The notes beneath the pieces were generated by a model that ran no database searches, was not told the DNA's origin, and worked only from the letters and a program-made list of their open reading frames with translations. DNA of 43,891 bases. It comes from Escherichia phage vB-Eco-KMB35. Position 1 is the first letter of the stretch; each line of letters opens with the position of its first letter. The translations under genes were made by a program, and so were the position numbers. The stretch lies in the sequence record OR525704.1; one strand, 5' to 3'. This document shows positions 1-43,891 of the stretch, one piece after another.

Positions 1-1
1 C

Positions 2-1228
2 GGTATGCATTGCAAGTTTCCGGCATTCGTAGCTGGCTTCGGTACGGGTAAATCCGAAGTTATGTGCAACTCTGCACTACTCGACAGCATGGAAGGTGGT
101 AGCGATTCTATCATCGCCATGTATGAGCCGACTTATGACCTGGTGCGCCTCATCCTTGCACCGCGTATGGAAGAAAAGCTCACCGACTGGGGTATCCGGT
201 ACAAATACAACAAGTCTGACAACATAATCTATACGTCTTCCGGACAATTTGGGGATTTTGTTCTGCGTACACTTGATAATCCAGCACGAATCGTTGGCTA
301 CGAATCGTTTCGTGCGAAAATCGACGAGTTGGACACCCTTAACATGGAGCACGCCGAGCACGCGTGGAACAAAGTCATCGCCCGTAACCGCCAGTTGCCG
401 CGGACATATAAACCTATTACACCGAAACCTGCTAATACCGTTTCCGTGTTCACTACCCCGGAAGGATTCCGTTTCGTACATGACCGCTGGGTAGTCAAAA
501 AGAATCCAGGCTACGAGATGATTCAGGCGTCCACCCTGTCTAACCCGTTCCTGCCAGAAGATTATGTGCAGTCGTTACGCGACACATACCCAGGTCAGTT
601 GATTGACGCCTACATCAACGGCGAGTTCGTCAACCTGACGGCGGGGACTGTCTATTACGCCTATGACCGCAGGAAAAACAGCAGCCGCGAAACAATAAAA
701 CCAGGCGAGACTCTGTATATCGGGCAGGACTTTAACGTAGGCCACATGGCTAGTACAGTTTACGTGCAACGTGGCAAAGTCTGGCATGCAGTCGCCGAGT
801 TGGTGGATATGTTCGATACGCCCGATGTGGTGAGAGCCGTAACAGAGCGCTGGAAAAGTAAGGGCCACTATATCGTTATGTACCCCGACGCAAGCGGTAA
901 AAACCGTAAAAGTAACAACGCCAGCACATCTGATATTGCCCAGTTACAGCAGGCCGGCTTCGAAGTGCGCGCTAAATCGACAAACCCACCGGTTAAAGAC
1001 CGCGTAGCGGCGATGAATAAGGCGCTTGAATCTGGTATGGTCATGATTAATGAACAGGCTTGCCCTGTTACCGCACGATGCCTGGAGCAACAGGCTTACG
1101 ACAAGAACGGCGAACCGGATAAATCAGGCGGTGTGGACCACCAGAATGATGGAACCACATACCCTATCGCGTATGAAATGCCGATTCGCAAACCAGTTAT
1201 TAACGTCCCGGTGACTTTCGCACTTTAA
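2..1228 (+). CDS. terL: Terminase large subunit, C-terminal 408 codons; 5' end is at 43848..43891 if the genome is circularly joined
   Basis: ORF open from window position 2; N-terminal GFGTGKS Walker A-like motif; precedes portal gene; follows terS across the window junction. Confidence 0.8.
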   Translation, partial: GMHCKFPAFVAGFGTGKSEVMCNSALLDSMEGGSDSIIAMYEPTYDLVRLILAPRMEEKLTDWGIRYKYNKSDNIIYTSSGQFGDFVLRTLDNPARIVGYESFRAKIDELDTLNMEHAEHAWNKVIARNRQLPRTYKPITPKPANTVSVFTTPEGFRFVHDRWVVKKNPGYEMIQASTLSNPFLPEDYVQSLRDTYPGQLIDAYINGEFVNLTAGTVYYAYDRRKNSSRETIKPGETLYIGQDFNVGHMASTVYVQRGKVWHAVAELVDMFDTPDVVRAVTERWKSKGHYIVMYPDASGKNRKSNNASTSDIAQLQQAGFEVRAKSTNPPVKDRVAAMNKALESGMVMINEQACPVTARCLEQQAYDKNGEPDKSGGVDHQNDGTTYPIAYEMPIRKPVINVPVTFAL

Positions 1229-1240
1229 GAGGATTATTCA

Positions 1241-2722
1241 ATGTTAACTATGAACGGTCAGAATCAGGGTGTTAAGACAAAACACCGGGAATGGCTGCAT
1301 CACTTCGATAAATGGCAGAAGGTACGCCACGCTCTTGAAGGCGACCTTATCCGCTATCTGCGCAACGTCGGGAAGAACGAGCCTGACCAGACCTACGCAG
1401 CACAGCGACAGGAAGAATACGAGAACGGCGCTATCTGCTACAATTTCACCAAACGCACGCTGGCGGGGATGACGGGGTCAGTGATGCGCAAAGACCCTGA
1501 GCAGATTATCCCGCCTGAACTTGAGTACCTGTTGCACAACGCTGACGGTTCAGGTGTCGGGCTGTGGCAGCACGCGCAGGATACGCTGATGGAGATTAAC
1601 TCGATAGGCCGTGGCGGGTTGCTGGTGGACGCCCCGGAAACAGCCGCAGCAACGGCGGCAGAGCAGAACGCGGGATTATTAAACCCGGTAATCGCATTCT
1701 ATACCGCGGAGAACATTATCAACTGGAGACTCACCCGCATCGGTTCAGTGAACCGCGTGACGATGGTTGTATTGCGTGAGGCATGGGAATACTCGGAACC
1801 AGGCGCTGAGTTTGAAACAAAATTCGGCGAGCAATACCGCGTCCTTGACCTGATTGACGGTCGCTACCGCCAGCGCATCTACCGCTTCGATGCCGAAGGT
1901 GGCGCACAGGATGAAGTAATCGAAATCTTCCCGGAACTCGGCGAACAGTTGCGCGGTAAAATCCCGTTCACGTTCATTGGCGCAAGCAACAACGACGCCA
2001 CTATAGACGATGCGCCTTTACTGCCGTTAGCTGAGCTAAATATAGGACACTTCAGAAATTCGGCCGATGTGGAAGAGGCCAGCTTTATAGTAGGTCAACC
2101 GACACTGTTCATTGCCCCCGGCGAGAACATGAGCATGGAGCAGTGGAAAGAAGCCAACCCACACGGCATACGCATGGGGTCGCGTTCAGGCCACAACATC
2201 GGCTCCGGCGGCAATGCGTTTCTGGTTCAGGCGGCGGAAACTAACCTCGCCAAACAGAATATGCTGGATAAAGAGAATCAGGCCATCCAGATTGGCGCGC
2301 AGCTTATCACCCCGACGCAGCAAATCACCGCTGAATCGGCACGGCTGCAACGCGGCGCCGACACGTCAGTCATGGCAACAATAGCACGTAATGTAAGCAT
2401 GGCGTATACCGATGCGTTGCGCTGGGTTGCGGGTATGCTTGGGCTTAGTGAAGATACTGAGATTGAGTTCAAGCTGAATATGGAATTCTTCCTGCAACCT
2501 ATGACAGCTCAGGACCGCGCTCAGTGGATGGCGGATATTAACGCTGGCCTGCTACCCGCCACCGCTTACTATGCTGCGTTGCGCAAGGCAGGTGTGACTG
2601 ACTGGACAGATGAGGACATTCAGAACGCTATTGAAGACGCACCTCTGCCGTTGGGTTCTGTTGCTCAGGTAGCGGGAGAGATTCCGCAGTCGGCGCAGCA
2701 ACAGGACACCACTCAGCAGTAA
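1241..2722 (+). CDS. Portal protein
   Basis: 493-aa ORF directly after terL, ATG with RBS, size and position typical of portal. Confidence 0.8.
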   Translation: MLTMNGQNQGVKTKHREWLHHFDKWQKVRHALEGDLIRYLRNVGKNEPDQTYAAQRQEEYENGAICYNFTKRTLAGMTGSVMRKDPEQIIPPELEYLLHNADGSGVGLWQHAQDTLMEINSIGRGGLLVDAPETAAATAAEQNAGLLNPVIAFYTAENIINWRLTRIGSVNRVTMVVLREAWEYSEPGAEFETKFGEQYRVLDLIDGRYRQRIYRFDAEGGAQDEVIEIFPELGEQLRGKIPFTFIGASNNDATIDDAPLLPLAELNIGHFRNSADVEEASFIVGQPTLFIAPGENMSMEQWKEANPHGIRMGSRSGHNIGSGGNAFLVQAAETNLAKQNMLDKENQAIQIGAQLITPTQQITAESARLQRGADTSVMATIARNVSMAYTDALRWVAGMLGLSEDTEIEFKLNMEFFLQPMTAQDRAQWMADINAGLLPATAYYAALRKAGVTDWTDEDIQNAIEDAPLPLGSVAQVAGEIPQSAQQQDTTQQ

Positions 2723-2732
2723 GTTCACCTAT

Positions 2733-2755
2733 AGCCCCGAAAGGGGCTTTCTTAT
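2733..2755 (+). terminator. Hairpin agcccc-gaaa-ggggct followed by ttctt after portal gene
   Basis: Perfect 6-bp GC stem with tetraloop and T-rich tail. Confidence 0.5.
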
Positions 2756-2758
2756 AGT

Positions 2759-3835
2759 ATGCTATTAACTTTAGCGCCACAGGGTTTATCTATGAGCTTA
2801 CTTACATCCCTAATCAGCCATCAGATATGGCTGCAACGCACCGCATCCGGTGAAGTGAAAGACCTCACGCCGTTCATTCAGGAGATAAGGGATGAAATCA
2901 AACGGCAGGTGCTGTTATTCGGTGACGACGGTCGCAGCACTGCGCGACTGAATAAACTGTTACGCGACCTGGAAGAAGCACTAACCGGTATTACGGGTGA
3001 CTGGCAAACAAAGCTAACAGACGACCTTAAGGAACTGGCGGCGTACGAGGCTGAGTGGAACGTAAAGACACTGACCGCCAACGTAGACGCGGAATTTGTT
3101 ACGCCTACCGCTGAGCAGGTATGGGCCGCTGCCGAGTTTCAACCATTATCATTGAGCGACAAGCCCGTTGATTTCACTAAGCTGATGGACGGCTGGGGTG
3201 AAACGGAAGTAGCACGTCTTGTAACTGGAGTTAAGATGGGCTTTGTGCAAGGTCAAACCACACGGCAGATTGTTAAGAATGTTGTTGGCGCTGGTGGACT
3301 AGCCGACATCTCAGAACGTAACGCGACTACGGTAATCCGCACCGCGCTGTCCCACGTATCCAACGAGGCCCGTAACGAGACGTACCGCCAGAACGACGAC
3401 ATCATCGAGAAATATGAGTGGGTGTCAACTTTGGACAGCCGTACCAGCACGATTTGCAGGGCCAGAGACGGAATGACGTGGGAAATCGGTAAAGGTCCGA
3501 TGCCACCAGCCCATCCTAATTGCCGAAGTACCACTGCACCGGTAATCAGTTCAGAGTTCGACTTCCTTGATAAAGGCGCAAAACGTGCGGCTAAGGGTGC
3601 GGACGGCGGTACTCAGGTAAGCGCAGACACCACCTATTACGAGTTCCTGAAACAACAACCAGCATGGTTTCAGGACCAGGCGCTCGGTCCTGTTCGCGGT
3701 AAGATTTTCCGTAACAGCGGTATATCGCCGGAAGAGTTTCGCGTAATATCTGTAGATGGTTTCGGGAATCCGCTCACGCTTAAGCAGATGGCGGAACTCG
3801 ATAAACGTGTTGCTGATTATCTGAAAGGGGAATAA
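2759..3835 (+). CDS. Head morphogenesis protein (MuF / SPP1 gp7-like minor head protein)
   Basis: 358-aa ORF after portal; position and size typical of MuF-like proteins. Confidence 0.6.
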   Translation: MLLTLAPQGLSMSLLTSLISHQIWLQRTASGEVKDLTPFIQEIRDEIKRQVLLFGDDGRSTARLNKLLRDLEEALTGITGDWQTKLTDDLKELAAYEAEWNVKTLTANVDAEFVTPTAEQVWAAAEFQPLSLSDKPVDFTKLMDGWGETEVARLVTGVKMGFVQGQTTRQIVKNVVGAGGLADISERNATTVIRTALSHVSNEARNETYRQNDDIIEKYEWVSTLDSRTSTICRARDGMTWEIGKGPMPPAHPNCRSTTAPVISSEFDFLDKGAKRAAKGADGGTQVSADTTYYEFLKQQPAWFQDQALGPVRGKIFRNSGISPEEFRVISVDGFGNPLTLKQMAELDKRVADYLKGE

Positions 3836-24280: not shown

Positions 24281-25701
24281 TTCTTACCTCGTCTCTTCAT
24301 GTAATTAAGCAACTCTTCCTGTACCGATTTTTTCTCGTCCGTACGCGCGGCAACAACCTCGTCCAGCGTGTCTTTAGCGACGATATGATAGAGGAACACC
24401 GGGCGCTCGTGTCCCGCCTGTTTCTGGCGGACCGGGCCTATGCGCTCAACAACCTGTAAATAGTGCTCAAGGTTCCACCCTTGCGAAATAAACGCCAGAT
24501 GATGTCCGCCGTCCTGTAAATTCAAACCATGACCAGCTGACGCAGGATGCACGCATAAGATTTCGATTTCGCCACGGTTCCACGCTTCCATCTGCTTATT
24601 ACCCTTCGCACCTTTAGCAAACGCCTGTGCTTGCGGGAATCGCTTAAGGATACGCTCCAGTTCGTGCTTGAACTGATAAGCCACCAGTAACGGCGCACCT
24701 TGTAGCTCCTCAACAATTGACTCGAGCGCATCCAGTTTCGTGTCGTGCACTTTCTCCCAGTCTTTGGTTGCTTCTCCGTCGTCACCCGTCACATACACGG
24801 CACCGGAAGCAATCTGCAAACACTTAGACGTCTTCGCTGCCGCGTTAGCCGCTTCAACTTCCCCGCTCTCCAGTTCCGCGAATAACTTTTCCTCCATATC
24901 GATGTACGCCTGACGCGCTTTCTTCGGCAGGTCGATTTCAACAGGTACGATAACCGGCGCTTCGCATCCGAACCACTCAGCGGCGTCAATCGTGAGACTG
25001 ATGTCCTTCATCTTCTGGTGGATTTCAGTATCCGCACCCGGGCGGGCGTGGTATTCGCGCGCCATAGCAGATTTGCCCTTCTGCACCGAGTTAAACCAGC
25101 GGTCGGTGAATGCCGTGTACGAAGAACCGAGGCGCTCGCCCGCGTCGATAAACCAGTTCTGTCCCCACAAGTCCTTGAGGCCGTTAGGCGATGGTGTACC
25201 TGTCAGGTTGATAAAACGCTTAACCTTTCCGAACGCCACTCTACTAAGCGCCTTCGCCCGCTTGCTGCCGCCTGAACGGCTGCGGAATGACTTCAGTTTC
25301 GTGCTTTCATCGGCAACGATAACGGTAAAAGGCCAGTCGTCTTTGCCGTAGTAGTCAATCAACCACTCTATTACCTCATAGTTCGTGCACACCACGTTAG
25401 CGTCCGACTCCAGCGCCGCGATGCGGCGCTTCTCTGAACCGGTCGCGTCTACGACACGCAGACATGGGAAATTCCACTTAGTTTGTTCCGCCGGCCATGT
25501 GCCTGATGCAACGCGCAACGGGGCGAGGATTAACACGCGGTCCTCTTCTGTAAGCTGCCCGTTGCGGAACAGTCGGTTTAATGTCCACAGTACGCTGCCA
25601 GTCTTCCCGGCGCCCATGCTCGCCCAAATATTACAGCGATGGTGCCGCAACATGAACGAAGTCATTAGCTTCTGGTATTCGCGCCTTTGAAACTTACTCA
25701 T
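24277..25701 (-). CDS. SNF2/DEAD-like superfamily 2 helicase
   Basis: 474 aa; Walker A GAGKTGS, DExx box VIVADESTK, C-terminal helicase domain. Confidence 0.75.
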   Translation of the reverse strand: MSKFQRREYQKLMTSFMLRHHRCNIWASMGAGKTGSVLWTLNRLFRNGQLTEEDRVLILAPLRVASGTWPAEQTKWNFPCLRVVDATGSEKRRIAALESDANVVCTNYEVIEWLIDYYGKDDWPFTVIVADESTKLKSFRSRSGGSKRAKALSRVAFGKVKRFINLTGTPSPNGLKDLWGQNWFIDAGERLGSSYTAFTDRWFNSVQKGKSAMAREYHARPGADTEIHQKMKDISLTIDAAEWFGCEAPVIVPVEIDLPKKARQAYIDMEEKLFAELESGEVEAANAAAKTSKCLQIASGAVYVTGDDGEATKDWEKVHDTKLDALESIVEELQGAPLLVAYQFKHELERILKRFPQAQAFAKGAKGNKQMEAWNRGEIEILCVHPASAGHGLNLQDGGHHLAFISQGWNLEHYLQVVERIGPVRQKQAGHERPVFLYHIVAKDTLDEVVAARTDEKKSVQEELLNYMKRRGKK

Positions 25702-26488
25702 TTACGGCCCCCATGAACGCCTTTATAAATTCAGCGGCTACTTGCGGGACGATAGCATTGCCGTAACCGCGCAATCGTCCCACTCTGGCGGGTACCCCAT
25801 TAGCCAGCGGGAATGTGCTGGGTTCAACTGGCCTGAATTTTCCATCCCGGCATCCGAGCCAGTCAGCATCTGACCAGAACCCGTTAGGCGGATTGGCTGT
25901 GTCAGAGATGCCTCTGTTTGCAGATTGTGGCCCCCGTTCCTGCCCTGATGGCCTGCTCCCGCCGAGTTGTTCGCACACGGTGTTGGCCAGTTGCTGCGCT
26001 CCGAAGAACAATCGATTCCTTTTGTGCGGTGCGCCGACGCTACAAGCTGGGAGTACGGCAAACCCGACGGCGTAGTCTTCTCTTTCCAGGTGAGTTTGTA
26101 AATCGCACATCCACGATTTTGCAATTGCTGCCGCAACCTGCTCCCCAAAGATGACTGGAGGGTGGCACTCGCTGATGAGGTCGAGGAGCACAGGTGCGAG
26201 GTGTCTCTGGTCGAACTGTCCGAGTTGCTTTCCTGCCGTGCTAAACGGTTGGCAAGGCGGACTTCCCGTCCATATAGGCGTATCTTCAGAAACTCCCGCA
26301 AGTCTGAGCGCGAGAGGCCAGCCGCCGATACCCGCGAAAAAATGACACTGGGTGAACCCGTCAAGGTCTTCTGGCTTAACTTCGGTAATGCTTCTTTCAT
26401 CTACAACTCCAAAAGGTATGTGACCCTGTTTTATCAACTCACGCAGCCACGCGGCTGCGCCTTTATCCCATTCATTGTAATAGTTCAT
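25694..26488 (-). CDS. DNA (cytosine-5) methyltransferase
   Basis: 264 aa; motif I FAGIGGW, motif [13 protein letters not shown], QxRxR-like KRNRLFF, C-terminal GNAIVP. Confidence 0.7.
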
Positions 26489-27075: not shown

Positions 27076-27207
27076 TCATTCCAGCACCCACAGATAAATT
27101 GCGATGAACATGCCCAATATGGCAACCATCATGCCGTATTGACCCTCGTGACAGTAGACACCGGCAGCAAATCCCGCCAGTACCGCGATAATCAGTTTAC
27201 TTGGCAT
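27076..27207 (-). CDS. Small membrane peptide (43 aa)
   Basis: Strong AAGGAG RBS; hydrophobic sequence LIIAVLAGFAAGVY...MMVAILGMFIAIYLWVL. Confidence 0.45.
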   Translation of the reverse strand: MPSKLIIAVLAGFAAGVYCHEGQYGMMVAILGMFIAIYLWVLE

Positions 27208-27892
27208 CTCTACATTCTCCTTCAGGCCACCTATTAGGAAAAGACGGTATATGTGAAACTTCTCTCGCCGCTTTTATTCTTTTAATGGCGGGACCTATCT
27301 CCGTAACCATTTCAATGAATGTAAACCGGTGTCCTCTGGTAAGATTACATGTCTGACAACAAGAAACGCAGTTAGATACTATGTGCCCGCTTGTATTATC
27401 TATGCGGTCTACCCCGACTTTTGTAGTGCTTCCGCAATAATGGCATGGCTGTGATATTAGTTTAATAACGCTTTCCAGTGTTAAATCGCAGATAAGCCCT
27501 TTTCCTGAATCTGCTCTTTTGTATCCTAACAAAAGCGCGTACGCCCGCGTCCTTTGGTCCTTATTCACCAGTTCCCTGCGTTGCTTGTTGAGACACTCCC
27601 GGCAATCTTTCCTGATATGAGAGCCATTACTTTTATTTCCTTTCCTGAAGTTTTCCTCTGTTAAAGGTTTTACCTCCCCACACTTTCTGCATTTAACAGG
27701 CTTCCCAGTGAAAACATACCAAGGGCTTTCTCGTCTGGATTTACCTTGTAATTTAAGTTTTTCGTCATACTTTTCCTTCCTGTTAGCATTTACACACTCT
27801 TTACACCAGCGTTGCAGCCCGAGGCGCGTTGACTTTGAAAAATACTCTGTAGTCGCCGGTTTATCTTCGCCGCATCTTGAACACTTTTTCAT
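27197..27892 (-). CDS. HNH endonuclease with two N-terminal CxxC zinc-ribbon repeats (homing-endonuclease-like)
   Basis: ATG 27892 with GGAG RBS; repeated C-R/K-CGE-KP...C-E-C modules; C-terminal CHYCG...DRIDN...H HNH motif. Confidence 0.7.
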   Translation of the reverse strand: MKKCSRCGEDKPATTEYFSKSTRLGLQRWCKECVNANRKEKYDEKLKLQGKSRRESPWYVFTGKPVKCRKCGEVKPLTEENFRKGNKSNGSHIRKDCRECLNKQRRELVNKDQRTRAYALLLGYKRADSGKGLICDLTLESVIKLISQPCHYCGSTTKVGVDRIDNTSGHIVSNCVSCCQTCNLTRGHRFTFIEMVTEIGPAIKRIKAAREVSHIPSFPNRWPEGECRDAK

Positions 27893-27902
27893 TAATAACT
27901 CC

Positions 27903-27939
27903 AAAAAAAAAAATACCGACATAGCCATTATATCGGTAT
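27903..27939 (-). terminator. Minus-strand intrinsic terminator: hairpin ataccga/tcggtat followed by T11
   Basis: 11-nt A-run on + strand (27903..27913) adjacent to 7-bp inverted repeat, just 3' of DNA polymerase gene. Confidence 0.6.
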
Positions 27940-27971: not shown

Positions 27972-30152
27972 CTACTTGGCGTATCTGTACATTTCGCTAC
28001 CTTCTGCTACAAGAGGGAACCCCTCCGCCCATTCTGGTAATTCGCACATCAATCGCTCAAGCTCTGCGACATTGTATTCCGGCGTATCTGGAGTTTCGCA
28101 GATAATCTCATCGTGGACATGAAGTACAATTGGATAACCGTTTGCTTCTACGTTCAGCAGCGCGTTGGCCAGCAAATCACGGCACAACGCCTGAGTGCAG
28201 TTTTCCACCAGTTTACCAGAGTAGGTGTACTGGAAGCCCCACTGCCGGGTTAACTGGTTTTCGCCCTGGTACTTGATGCGCACGTTAGTAGACACCTTTC
28301 CATCTTCGTCTGTCTCTTTCGACACACTTAATCCGACGCCCGGGTATGACATAACGCGACCCGACGGCAACGTCATGCGCAACCACCAGCCCGCGACTTT
28401 GTCGCCGTTGTTGTCTGTCTCTATGTTACGCGAAAACTTAACGCCTCGCGGTCCTGCGGTGAACTCTTTACCTGGATTGCGGATAGCGGCCATAGCTGCG
28501 TCTTCAATATCTCGCCAGAAAGCTACTGTTTCAGGGTGTGACTCTCGCCACATACGCTTGATAGCGTCACAGGTACGCCACACTTTCTTATCAAGAATAT
28601 ACGATGGTCGGTCATCCTTCTCCCCGGGTCGCGGCGGTCGCTTGGCTTCCTGAATACGTGCCCATTCATAGCCGCGTGCAGTAGCCGCCCAGATGTGGTC
28701 CGGGAAAGTACCGTCCATTGTTTTTGACATATCAACAAGGTCAAGTCCGAGGTTCTTAGCAAACTGAACGAAAGCGCCAACACCACCAGCGTAGCCGAGG
28801 CCAAGCTCGCAGGCTTTACCAATCTGGCGCAAGTCTTTGCGTTCCTTCTTAATGTAATCCGGCTCCATGCCGAACATCTTACCCGCGGTTACACAGTAAA
28901 TGTCCAGCCCGGCGCGGAACGTATCTAGCGCGGTTTCTTCGCCTGCCAGCCACGCAAGCCCCCGACCTTCAACGTTAGAGTAATCGGCGACGACAAACTT
29001 TTTTCCGGCTTCCGGGATAATGCAGCTACGCACCGTCGATGCCGTTAGCTTAGCGACATCGAAACGGCGATGCGCGCGGCCCTTAAGTAACGCTGAAATA
29101 CCTTTATCCAGTTCATCATCGTGATAGTACCCACGCGCGAGGTTCTGCGGCTGAAATCCTTTACCGGCAAATCGTAATGTACGCTTGGCTCCGCCGTACT
29201 GAATGCAACCACGACGGCGGTCGTCCGACGAGCGCCCTAACAGCAGCGGGTTATATTTCGTTGACGCTGTGGACGCGGCCCCGAGGCGCATTTCGATAAT
29301 CGCGCGGGCGTCGTCCGGTAAATCATCGTCCGCCAGCAGGTCGTTAAGCGTTGACTTCTGTGCATTGTGTATGCGGTGCGCGGGCGCAAGTTCACGCAGA
29401 ATCGGAAGGAAGTCTTTACCGGTAAGCGAGCCGCCGTATTTACGTTGAGCTTCTTCCTGTAACTGTGCCTTGTGCTTCTCTACGGCTTCAATCGCGGCTT
29501 CCGCCAGTGCGACGTCAACCTTAAATCCGCGGTCGTTGATTAACTGGTCAAGTTCCAGTACACGGTCTTCGAATTCGGAGTTACCCCACCGCGGCAGCTT
29601 ATGGAACACTTCACGCATCGCTGTGATGTCACTCACGGCATACTTGATAAACAGCGCCCACTCATCCGGGTGCGTTTCCGCGGTATAGCGGCGGATTTTG
29701 TAGTTCTTCGGCGTCGGTTTAGAGAAACGCTTAATCAGAGCCTTGCCGCGTTTATCTTTCGCGTTGTCTGCAGACACGCCCAGCACTTCGCACAGCGCAT
29801 CAAGAGAACCCGGCAGCGCGTGACGGAACGCCCAAATCATAGTATCAATGGTGTTGCTTACCGGAATATCAAAGCCCCAGCAGTGCTTCATGACGAGCCT
29901 ATCGAAAAGTCCACCGTTGTGCCACACCATCTTGATGCGGCTGTTGGGCTTAACAAGGCGGCGCAGTGCGCGGTGTAAATCCCCCGGCATGTCGCTGCCG
30001 TCGGTGCAATCCCATACCCGCACAGGTTCGTCGTCAAAAGCATATGTACAGATAAGCACTTCGGTTGACGGGTGTTCGGCGTAAGCGTAAGAACCGACTT
30101 TCTTCAAATCGGCTTCTGAGAATGTTTCAAAGTCTAAGAACAGGTAACTCAT
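27972..30152 (-). CDS. Family A DNA polymerase with N-terminal 3'-5' exonuclease domain
   Basis: 726 aa; exo motif FLDFETFS; polymerase motifs DYSNVEGR (A), RQIGKACELGLGYAGG (B), HVHDEI (C). Confidence 0.9.
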   Translation of the reverse strand: MSYLFLDFETFSEADLKKVGSYAYAEHPSTEVLICTYAFDDEPVRVWDCTDGSDMPGDLHRALRRLVKPNSRIKMVWHNGGLFDRLVMKHCWGFDIPVSNTIDTMIWAFRHALPGSLDALCEVLGVSADNAKDKRGKALIKRFSKPTPKNYKIRRYTAETHPDEWALFIKYAVSDITAMREVFHKLPRWGNSEFEDRVLELDQLINDRGFKVDVALAEAAIEAVEKHKAQLQEEAQRKYGGSLTGKDFLPILRELAPAHRIHNAQKSTLNDLLADDDLPDDARAIIEMRLGAASTASTKYNPLLLGRSSDDRRRGCIQYGGAKRTLRFAGKGFQPQNLARGYYHDDELDKGISALLKGRAHRRFDVAKLTASTVRSCIIPEAGKKFVVADYSNVEGRGLAWLAGEETALDTFRAGLDIYCVTAGKMFGMEPDYIKKERKDLRQIGKACELGLGYAGGVGAFVQFAKNLGLDLVDMSKTMDGTFPDHIWAATARGYEWARIQEAKRPPRPGEKDDRPSYILDKKVWRTCDAIKRMWRESHPETVAFWRDIEDAAMAAIRNPGKEFTAGPRGVKFSRNIETDNNGDKVAGWWLRMTLPSGRVMSYPGVGLSVSKETDEDGKVSTNVRIKYQGENQLTRQWGFQYTYSGKLVENCTQALCRDLLANALLNVEANGYPIVLHVHDEIICETPDTPEYNVAELERLMCELPEWAEGFPLVAEGSEMYRYAK

Positions 30153-42896: not shown

Positions 42897-43129
42897 TTAC
42901 CAGCATTCCTAACCTGATTAAAGAATATGGCACGATGGCCGAGACATGCCGACAAACCGGCATCAACGAAATGACTATTGCTAAGTACAGCAAAGATGTT
43001 AACTGCGATCGCCACGTAATTTTTAACAACCGTCTGATGACGCACGTTAAGACAAGCCCGGTGTTATTCACGCGCCGGGGTATCACTAAAACAGAGCAAC
43101 GCATTGCTAAAGAGGAGAGTGGGGAATGA
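42893..43129 (+). CDS. Small HTH-like DNA-binding protein upstream of small terminase
   Basis: 78 aa; AETCRQTGINEMTIAKYSK HTH-like segment. Confidence 0.4.
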   Translation: MITSIPNLIKEYGTMAETCRQTGINEMTIAKYSKDVNCDRHVIFNNRLMTHVKTSPVLFTRRGITKTEQRIAKEESGE

Positions 43130-43231
43130 GACTACTAGTCTTTCCGAATTCCTGGGCTATCGCCGTAGCTAACGACCATTACGGCGGCGACGGTAAACGA
43201 GCGCCACGCCACGGCCTATATAACTGATACA

Positions 43232-43255
43232 AGCCCTCTACGGAGGGCTTTTCTG
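43232..43255 (+). terminator. Hairpin agccctc-tacg-gagggct followed by tttct
   Basis: Perfect 7-bp stem, tetraloop, T-rich tail. Confidence 0.55.
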
Positions 43256-43348
43256 TACATCCCGCCCAATCCCCTTATATAATCCCTTTAGACGCGTAGG
43301 GCGCGTCTGGTGCGCTCTGATGGTCAGACGCATATGCAAGGGGATTCT

Positions 43349-43858
43349 ATGAAGCTGAAACTTAAGCAGCCATCGCCAGAGGTGGTACAAGCTGCACATG
43401 AAGAAGCTGTTAGCGCAAACCGTCGCCGTAAACGACCGCGCGGTAAACAGAGCCTTTATCAATCATCCCGTAATTCCGCCGCGTTGTGGGACCCGGGCTA
43501 TTGCGATGCACTAATCGAGTTCTTCGACCGCACGTCGTGGGAGCTTGTGCCTACGTCTAAGGGTGACGAACGCCCGCTGATTCAGGATAAACCACCGTCA
43601 CTGGCCCGCTTCGCCTTACACATCGGAGTCACTATCCCGATTATTAAGCTTTGGCTGCGTGAGATTCCCGCATTTGCAGAAGCCTATGAAACGGCGCAGG
43701 CGCTGGAAGAGGCGTACTTCACCGAGACAGGGGCCGCGGGCATCTCTGCTACGTTTGCTGCTGCGAAACTGGGGTTGAATAAAACAGTTGTCGCCGAAGA
43801 AGTACGCGACGAGCCAATCAGCGAAGTAACAATTAAGGTGGTGTCCGGTGAACGTTAA
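43349..43858 (+). CDS. terS: Terminase small subunit (putative)
   Basis: 169 aa from ATG 43349 (RBS AAGGGG); basic N-terminal region RRRKRPRGK; immediately precedes and overlaps terL start. Confidence 0.5.
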   Translation: MKLKLKQPSPEVVQAAHEEAVSANRRRKRPRGKQSLYQSSRNSAALWDPGYCDALIEFFDRTSWELVPTSKGDERPLIQDKPPSLARFALHIGVTIPIIKLWLREIPAFAEAYETAQALEEAYFTETGAAGISATFAAAKLGLNKTVVAEEVRDEPISEVTIKVVSGER

Positions 43859-43891
43859 TATCACGGCAACGGAGCCGCAAGGCGCGTTTCT
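43848..43891 (+). CDS. terL: Terminase large subunit, first 15 codons (continues at window position 2)
   Basis: GTG 43848 with AAGGTGG RBS 6 nt upstream; reading frame is continuous across the window junction into ORF 2..1228. Confidence 0.6.
   Translation, partial: MNVNITATEPQGAF

Follow-up and report, generated by a model that had tools for sequence, protein, structure and literature searches.

The window, by which we mean the whole stretch of DNA analysed here (43,891 nt), ends in the middle of a reading frame and begins in the middle of another. This raises the question whether the two are halves of a single terminase gene, terL, so that the window is a complete phage genome opened within a gene, or whether its ends reflect missing sequence, physical termini of the virion DNA or a shorter terL that does not reach across them. 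Comparison with related phages indicates that the window is almost certainly the complete genome (~43.9 kb) of a virulent E. coli siphovirus of the genus Kagunavirus (Guernseyvirinae), presumably a self-closing assembly that was opened 48 nt inside terL.

The terL reading frame across the window junction

The features that meet at the two ends of the window are the following.

43349..43858, plus strand: terS (small terminase); likeliest start ATG 43349, in an ORF that runs from GTG 43310
43835..43841, plus strand: Shine-Dalgarno (SD) sequence of terL, AAGGTGG, read in the sequence; 6-nt spacer before the GTG
43848..43891, plus strand: 5' end of terL, from the GTG through codon 14 and two bases into codon 15; includes Q11 (Q motif)
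1..1228, plus strand: remainder of terL; base 1 ends codon 15, stop TAA at 1226-1228

The first-pass annotation had placed a GTG at 43848-43850, with AAGGTGG 6 nt upstream of it and the terS stop overlapped, and every one of these coordinates is right to the base. The 44 nt from 43848 to 43891 comprise 14 codons plus CT; with base 1 of the window (C) this CT becomes CTC (Leu15), after which the frame reads GGT ATG CAT TGC AAG and onwards. The last 60 bases of the window end in CAATTAAGGTGGTGTCCGGTGAACGTTAATATCACGGCAACGGAGCCGCAAGGCGCGTTTCT. The frame of the last 44 nt had been said to continue in the ORF that is open at the window start, with VNVNITATEPQGAFL before the junction and GMHCKFPAFVAGFGTGKS after it, and it does so exactly as quoted. 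When 43848-43891 is joined to 1-1228, the result is a 1272-nt ORF of 423 aa plus stop, with zero internal stops. Its translation is VNVNITATEPQGAFLGMHCKFPAFVAGFGTGKS...VTFAL, followed by the stop codon, and residues 1-16 include the peptide NVNITATEPQGAFLGMHCK. GTG 43848 is the earliest possible start in this frame after the preceding in-frame stop. The stop codon of terS (TAA, 43856-43858) lies inside terL, giving an overlap of 11 nt between the two genes. Overlap of a terS stop with a terL start is an arrangement typical of translational coupling, and terS and terL of the window are probably coupled in this manner.

Identity of the joined protein

The claim that terL crosses the junction also stands at the protein level, as the joined product is a bona fide TerL whose GTG start is conserved. 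Pfam Terminase_6N matches residues 24-233 (44.8 bits, cut-off 22) and Terminase_6C, the RNaseH-like nuclease domain, matches residues 255-404 (45.5 bits, cut-off 22.6). PHROG terminase families match the joined protein as well, and their alignments begin at residue 6, upstream of Met17. A profile made from the window protein and ten homologues (11 sequences, identity down to 22%) retrieved the solved TerL of Thermus phage D6E (5OE8; E 2.5e-20, profile positions 26-401), and further those of P74-26 (4ZNI; E 1e-16), T4 gp17 (3EZK/3CPE) and Sf6 gp2 (4IDH). A phmmer search of the PDB with TerL as a single sequence returned zero terminases and one spurious match, to a histidine kinase (E 0.15). The relationship to the solved proteins is remote and visible to profiles only, and the window TerL is shorter than T4 gp17, but all four share with it an ASCE ATPase with a Q motif, a Walker A and a Walker B DE, and a C-terminal RNaseH-like nuclease.

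The expected motifs are strongly conserved. Walker A reads A26-GFGTGKS-33, with G27, G31 and K32 invariant in the 11-sequence alignment, and it aligns with the GKT/GKS of D6E, P74-26 and T4 gp17. The pair D123-E124 (the Walker B D and the catalytic E) is invariant in the same 11 sequences and aligns with the DE of the solved TerLs. Further along, D258, D311 and H395 are invariant and D398 is nearly so, and the C-terminal domain of the protein is a predicted RNaseH-like nuclease. Q11 sits 21 residues before the Walker A K32 and aligns with Y142-Q143 of T4 gp17 and V26-Q27 of the P74-26 TerL. The PQ is kept in distant homologues, being conserved in TerLs of Klebsiella, Caulobacter, Pseudoalteromonas and Vibrio phages. 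We take Q143 of T4 gp17 to be the adenine-binding glutamine of the ATPase centre. Q11 is encoded only if GTG 43848 is the start of terL.

Among related phages, the window TerL is 100% identical to that of Bas71 and shares 84-90% amino acid identity with TerLs of Jerseyvirus, Kenya-K51 included. Identity to the TerL of K1G, the prototype Kagunavirus, is only 54%. Since the window protein is near to Jerseyvirus and far from K1G, Kagunavirus contains two diverged kinds of terL, an indication that modules have been exchanged between genera.

A separate observation concerns the integrity of terL in other phages. In PHROGs, the two halves of the window-type TerL fall in different families, phrog_38319 for the N-terminal and phrog_10250 for the C-terminal one. 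In ZCEC5 (MK542015) the terL region aligns to window 1-1300 as two pieces that occupy 1566 nt against a query of 1300 nt, which implies an insert of ~266 nt. The annotated features beneath this alignment are two hypothetical proteins and a putative structural protein. Given the implied insert and the separate half-families, some relatives may have a terL that is split or interrupted.

The start codon of terL

A second candidate start codon lies just beyond the junction.

5..7, plus strand: internal ATG (Met17); CTG in four Jerseyviruses; annotated as the start in some public records

If terL began at this ATG, the genome would have been opened in a short spacer between terS and terL, and no gene would cross the junction. 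ATG is a commoner start codon than GTG, and the ORF list of the window shows 5..1228 (407 aa), although it does so because the window ends cut the true terL ORF. The ATG is also used in public records: we read the terL annotation of 12 relatives, and two of them (22664BS2 and Golestan) have a 1224-nt terL that starts there, while the SHAK7858 record begins exactly at the ATG. The 1272-nt terL is annotated in 10 of the 12 (NTEC3, Bas72, Bas75, EM1, XY1, RP180, PST-H1, SGP007, S532 and S55).

Against the ATG stands its lack of conservation. The block of RBS, spacer and GTG is identical in all ten aligned relatives, including Jerseyviruses at ~82% nucleotide identity, whereas all four Jerseyviruses aligned have CTG (Leu) in place of the ATG, with GTG and RBS unchanged. 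The 37-nt stretch from the terS stop to the ATG moreover evolves as coding sequence in the terL frame, codon position 3 accounting for 10 of its 13 variable columns. The pattern downstream of the ATG matches this (32 of 35). The SD-like AAGG closest to the internal ATG is 13 nt upstream, so the ATG is left with no SD at a usable distance, and a TerL of 407 aa would be missing the conserved glutamine found opposite Q143 of T4 gp17 in the alignment. The CTG in Jerseyviruses, the codon-position-3 pattern, the distant SD and the loss of the Q motif largely refute a terL start at position 5, which we consider very improbable. Judged by these comparisons, the real start of terL is GTG 43848, not the ATG at position 5.

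There is a similarly slight chance that both starts are used, yielding full-length TerL and a Met17 isoform without the Q motif, or that the break is a genuine pac cleavage site at the terS-terL boundary. If both starts were true, a shorter, Kagunavirus-specific Met17 isoform could modulate the packaging motor.

The opening point of the window and of related records

With GTG 43848 as the start, the genome is opened inside terL, as had been proposed, and the break is found 48 nt into the terL ORF and 4 nt before the internal ATG. Records of relatives are opened at a variety of points. Those of Bas70-76 have the initial base of the terS ORF as position 1, and the BASEL authors describe their genomes as linearised at the terminase gene or the start of its operon (PMC11990801). 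The record of K1G (NC_027993) begins with the start of terL, and its terS runs over the record origin. Golestan (MG099933 / NC_042084) was cut within the true terL, 10 nt beyond the terS stop, and its terL is annotated from the internal ATG; several records copy this orientation. SHAK7858 (OR594183) was opened precisely at the internal ATG. The window has the same kind of opening point as Golestan, SHAK7858 and K1G, but is cut 4 nt before the ATG. Its break falls in the same class, a presumably circular assembly having been linearised arbitrarily or to suit an annotation, and does not mark a biological end. The 4-nt offset may stem from re-orientation to a mis-called terL start, or may be arbitrary.

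Several public Kagunavirus records, among them MG099933 (Golestan, a species exemplar), OR594183 and MZ234010, have a TerL short by 16 residues or are opened inside terL, and this 16-residue truncation is probably a propagating annotation artefact. OR594183.1 (vB_EcoM_SHAK7858) also carries the taxonomy line Autographiviridae; Studiervirinae; Kayfunavirus and the name 'EcoM'. Its DNA is ~92% identical to the window over ~70-77% of its length, and on this comparison the record looks mislabelled.

It is even more improbable than an ATG start that the window ends are real physical termini inside terL, that is, cos ends or an exact DTR collapsed by the assembler. Some Kagunavirus records were indeed deposited as 'linear'. 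However, the many opening points among relatives (terS start, terL start, 10 nt past the terS stop, internal) favour arbitrary linearisation. The window ends also carry no terminal repeat, and no exact direct repeat of 5-400 nt is shared by them, but assemblers or curators normally trim end overlap, which makes the missing repeat uninformative. PhageTerm and restriction analyses of relatives either pointed to headful packaging or revealed no fixed ends (PMC10783031, PMC9825357, PMC6753286).

Mode of packaging

Arbitrary linearisation of a circular assembly agrees with what has been reported for related phages. In the Kenyan Jerseyvirus K47, PhageTerm indicated P1-like headful packaging, the EcoRV pattern corresponded to a circular map and the undigested DNA ran as a broad band in PFGE (PMC10783031). 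Jerseyviruses are described as circularly permuted (PMC10608910), and PhageTerm predicts a headful/pac mechanism for two Guernseyvirinae-like phages of E. coli, Sciku and Shashou (PMC6753286, PMC6776780). In the Kagunavirus fBC-Eco01 no termini were found (PMC9825357), and terminal repeats are not reported for JSSK01 (PMC11641727). In the literature searched, we found no report of terminal redundancy in Kagunavirus, and the one paper there that combines Kagunavirus and headful packaging gives no termini for its phage of Kagunavirus size.

Because its relatives package in this way, and with a TerL 89% identical to that of Jerseyvirus (range 84-90%), the window phage most likely uses headful packaging that is circularly permuted and terminally redundant. 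TerS would recognise a pac site on concatemeric DNA, TerL would cut and translocate the DNA, and a sequence-independent headful cut would then produce linear, terminally redundant and circularly permuted virion DNA. Headful packaging from concatemers would also be the reason why such assemblies are circular, without defined ends. When 42900-43891 was searched for pac-like repeats, only short two-copy matches of chance quality were obtained.

Junction continuity and genome completeness

The first-pass annotation had further held that the genome is complete and that nothing is missing between the end and the start of the window, and both points are borne out. The junction is seamless in relatives and in IMG/VR contigs. 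When the last 700 and first 700 bases of the window were joined as a 1400-nt query, 122 records covered at least 80% of it, and it aligned as a single ungapped piece in many phage genomes (identity 99.1% in 22664BS2 and 98.1% in NTEC3). Base-level alignment over ±120 nt showed no indel at the junction in ten relatives, which were six E. coli or Raoultella Kagunavirus-like phages and four Jerseyviruses. A 41-nt exact junction pattern is present inside three IMG/VR contigs, and in two of the three the flanks align continuously to both window ends (L022 at 501/502, L023 at 4270/4271). This makes 12 independent sequences (10 relatives and 2 IMG/VR contigs) in which the junction is ungapped, and extra sequence between 43891 and 1 was seen in none of the relatives compared. 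The contiguity of end and start in all relatives is consistent with a circular assembly, and the window ends carry no overlap.

Over its full length the window is colinear with AnnaReinhart_Bas75 (Bas75; PQ850596), a circular record of 43,870 bp, with a rotation of 582 nt. In a blastn comparison with the whole of Bas75, window positions 1-25803 correspond to 583-26384, 43125-43309 to 43686-43870, and 43310-43891 to 1-582. The window junction (43891/1) is thus 582/583 of Bas75, with zero bases between. In total, 41,648 of the 43,891 window bases align to Bas75. The unaligned ~2.2 kb lies in small accessory-gene patches and includes the endonuclease VII-like gene at 27197-27928. Megablast aligned the first 25 kb to Bas75 in one piece at 93.9%, with the remaining window colinear, and overall identity is ~94% over ~95% of the window (a BLAST estimate, not VIRIDIC).

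Other phages place the window in the same genus. vB_EcoS_XY2 is 94.9% identical to it across 98% of the first 25 kb, and matches were also obtained to NTEC3 and 22664BS2, which are assigned to Kagunavirus. The BASEL Kagunaviruses (Bas70-76), NTEC3, XY2 and 22664BS2 share the whole gene order of the window at ~94-96% nucleotide identity, together with its terS/terL overlap and GTG start. By BLAST estimate, nucleotide identity to other Kagunaviruses across the entire genome lies above the genus threshold of 70%. The Jerseyviruses K47/K51 and SETP7 have the GTG start, RBS and terS overlap of the window, but they belong to another genus, have Salmonella hosts and encode Leu (CTG) rather than Met at residue 17. 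The sequence collection searched contained no record at least 99% identical overall to the window.

The gene content is likewise that of a whole phage, with complete structural, replication and lysis sets. Gene functions were taken from the annotation of Bas75, which is colinear with the window ORFs. Packaging and head genes comprise terS, terL, portal, a Mu F-like head morphogenesis protein, scaffold and major head protein, and the tail genes encode connectors, tape measure and tailspike. Replication is represented by helicase, DNA polymerase, annealing protein, exonuclease and helicase-primase, and lysis by holins, endolysin and spanins. No tRNAs were found in the window.

That the window ends inside a gene is the single point in favour of a partial genome or of part of a larger replicon, whether a prophage or a sequence with an assembly gap where the ends meet, and this reading has next to no probability. 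As far as sequence comparison allows, it is refuted by colinearity along the whole window with complete genomes of 42.7-45.5 kb, by the exact junction at Bas75 582/583 and the 12 ungapped junctions, and by the lack of bacterial flanks and of hits among 5,426 complete E. coli genomes.

The terS region and other genes

Three further features flank the terminase genes.

43254..43283, plus strand: sigma-70-like promoter match, TGTACA-18-TATAAT; consensus scan, 10/12 matches
1241..2722, plus strand: portal protein gene, directly 3' of terL; Bas75 homologue at 1823-3304 annotated as portal
2759..3835, plus strand: Mu F / SPP1 gp7-like head morphogenesis gene; Pfam Phage_Mu_F E 2.6e-13, phrog_241 'head morphogenesis' E 8e-156

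The gene at 1241-2722 is annotated in relatives as portal or as a 62 kDa structural protein. The start of terS differs among public records, which use GTG 43310 (Bas phages), ATG 43334 (22664BS2 and Golestan) or ATG 43349 (NTEC3, where the annotated terS has 510 nt). The family phrog_3064 'terminase' (E 5e-75) matches from residue 14 of the ORF that begins at GTG 43310, and AAGGGG is found 5 nt upstream of ATG 43349. On the basis of this RBS and the start of the PHROG alignment, terS most likely starts at ATG 43349 (169 aa).

The promoter match at 43254-43283 is a possible start of a packaging and morphogenesis operon. A rule-based scan for terminators upstream of terS passed no site. By eye, a GC-rich hairpin followed by TTTTCT can be seen at ~43231-43254, and a hairpin with a 7-bp stem (AGACGCG-TAGGG-CGCGTCT) at ~43289-43307. 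Hairpin, promoter match and second hairpin (43225-43310) could together mark an operon boundary, which, if true, would be a natural opening point for the genome.

Two genes of the replication region deserve mention. The minus-strand ORF at 27197-27928 (243 aa) matches endonuclease VII / HNH-type families (phrog_1035, E 7e-30) and has a Lar-like N-terminal match. It is located in a 791-nt stretch that is absent from Bas75 and adjoins the DNA polymerase gene (27972-30152), and it probably encodes a mobile homing endonuclease. The replication module also contains, at 25694-26488 on the minus strand, a gene for a C-5 cytosine DNA methyltransferase (Pfam DNA_methylase E 5e-16, phrog_363 E 1.5e-82). 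Even so, Kagunavirus phages are described in the BASEL paper as highly sensitive to restriction-modification systems (PMC11990801).

Consequences for the use of the genome

The opening of the window inside terL is a known effect of assembling and depositing the genomes of headful phages, here in a well-sampled genus, and involves no new biology. It does have consequences for annotation: gene calling on the window as given yields a TerL of 407 aa (5..1228) that is short by 16 residues and has lost the conserved glutamine. The window can be used as a complete Kagunavirus genome, but should first be rotated before genes are called on it, for instance to the terS start at 43349 or to the ORF start at 43310, which leaves terL intact.
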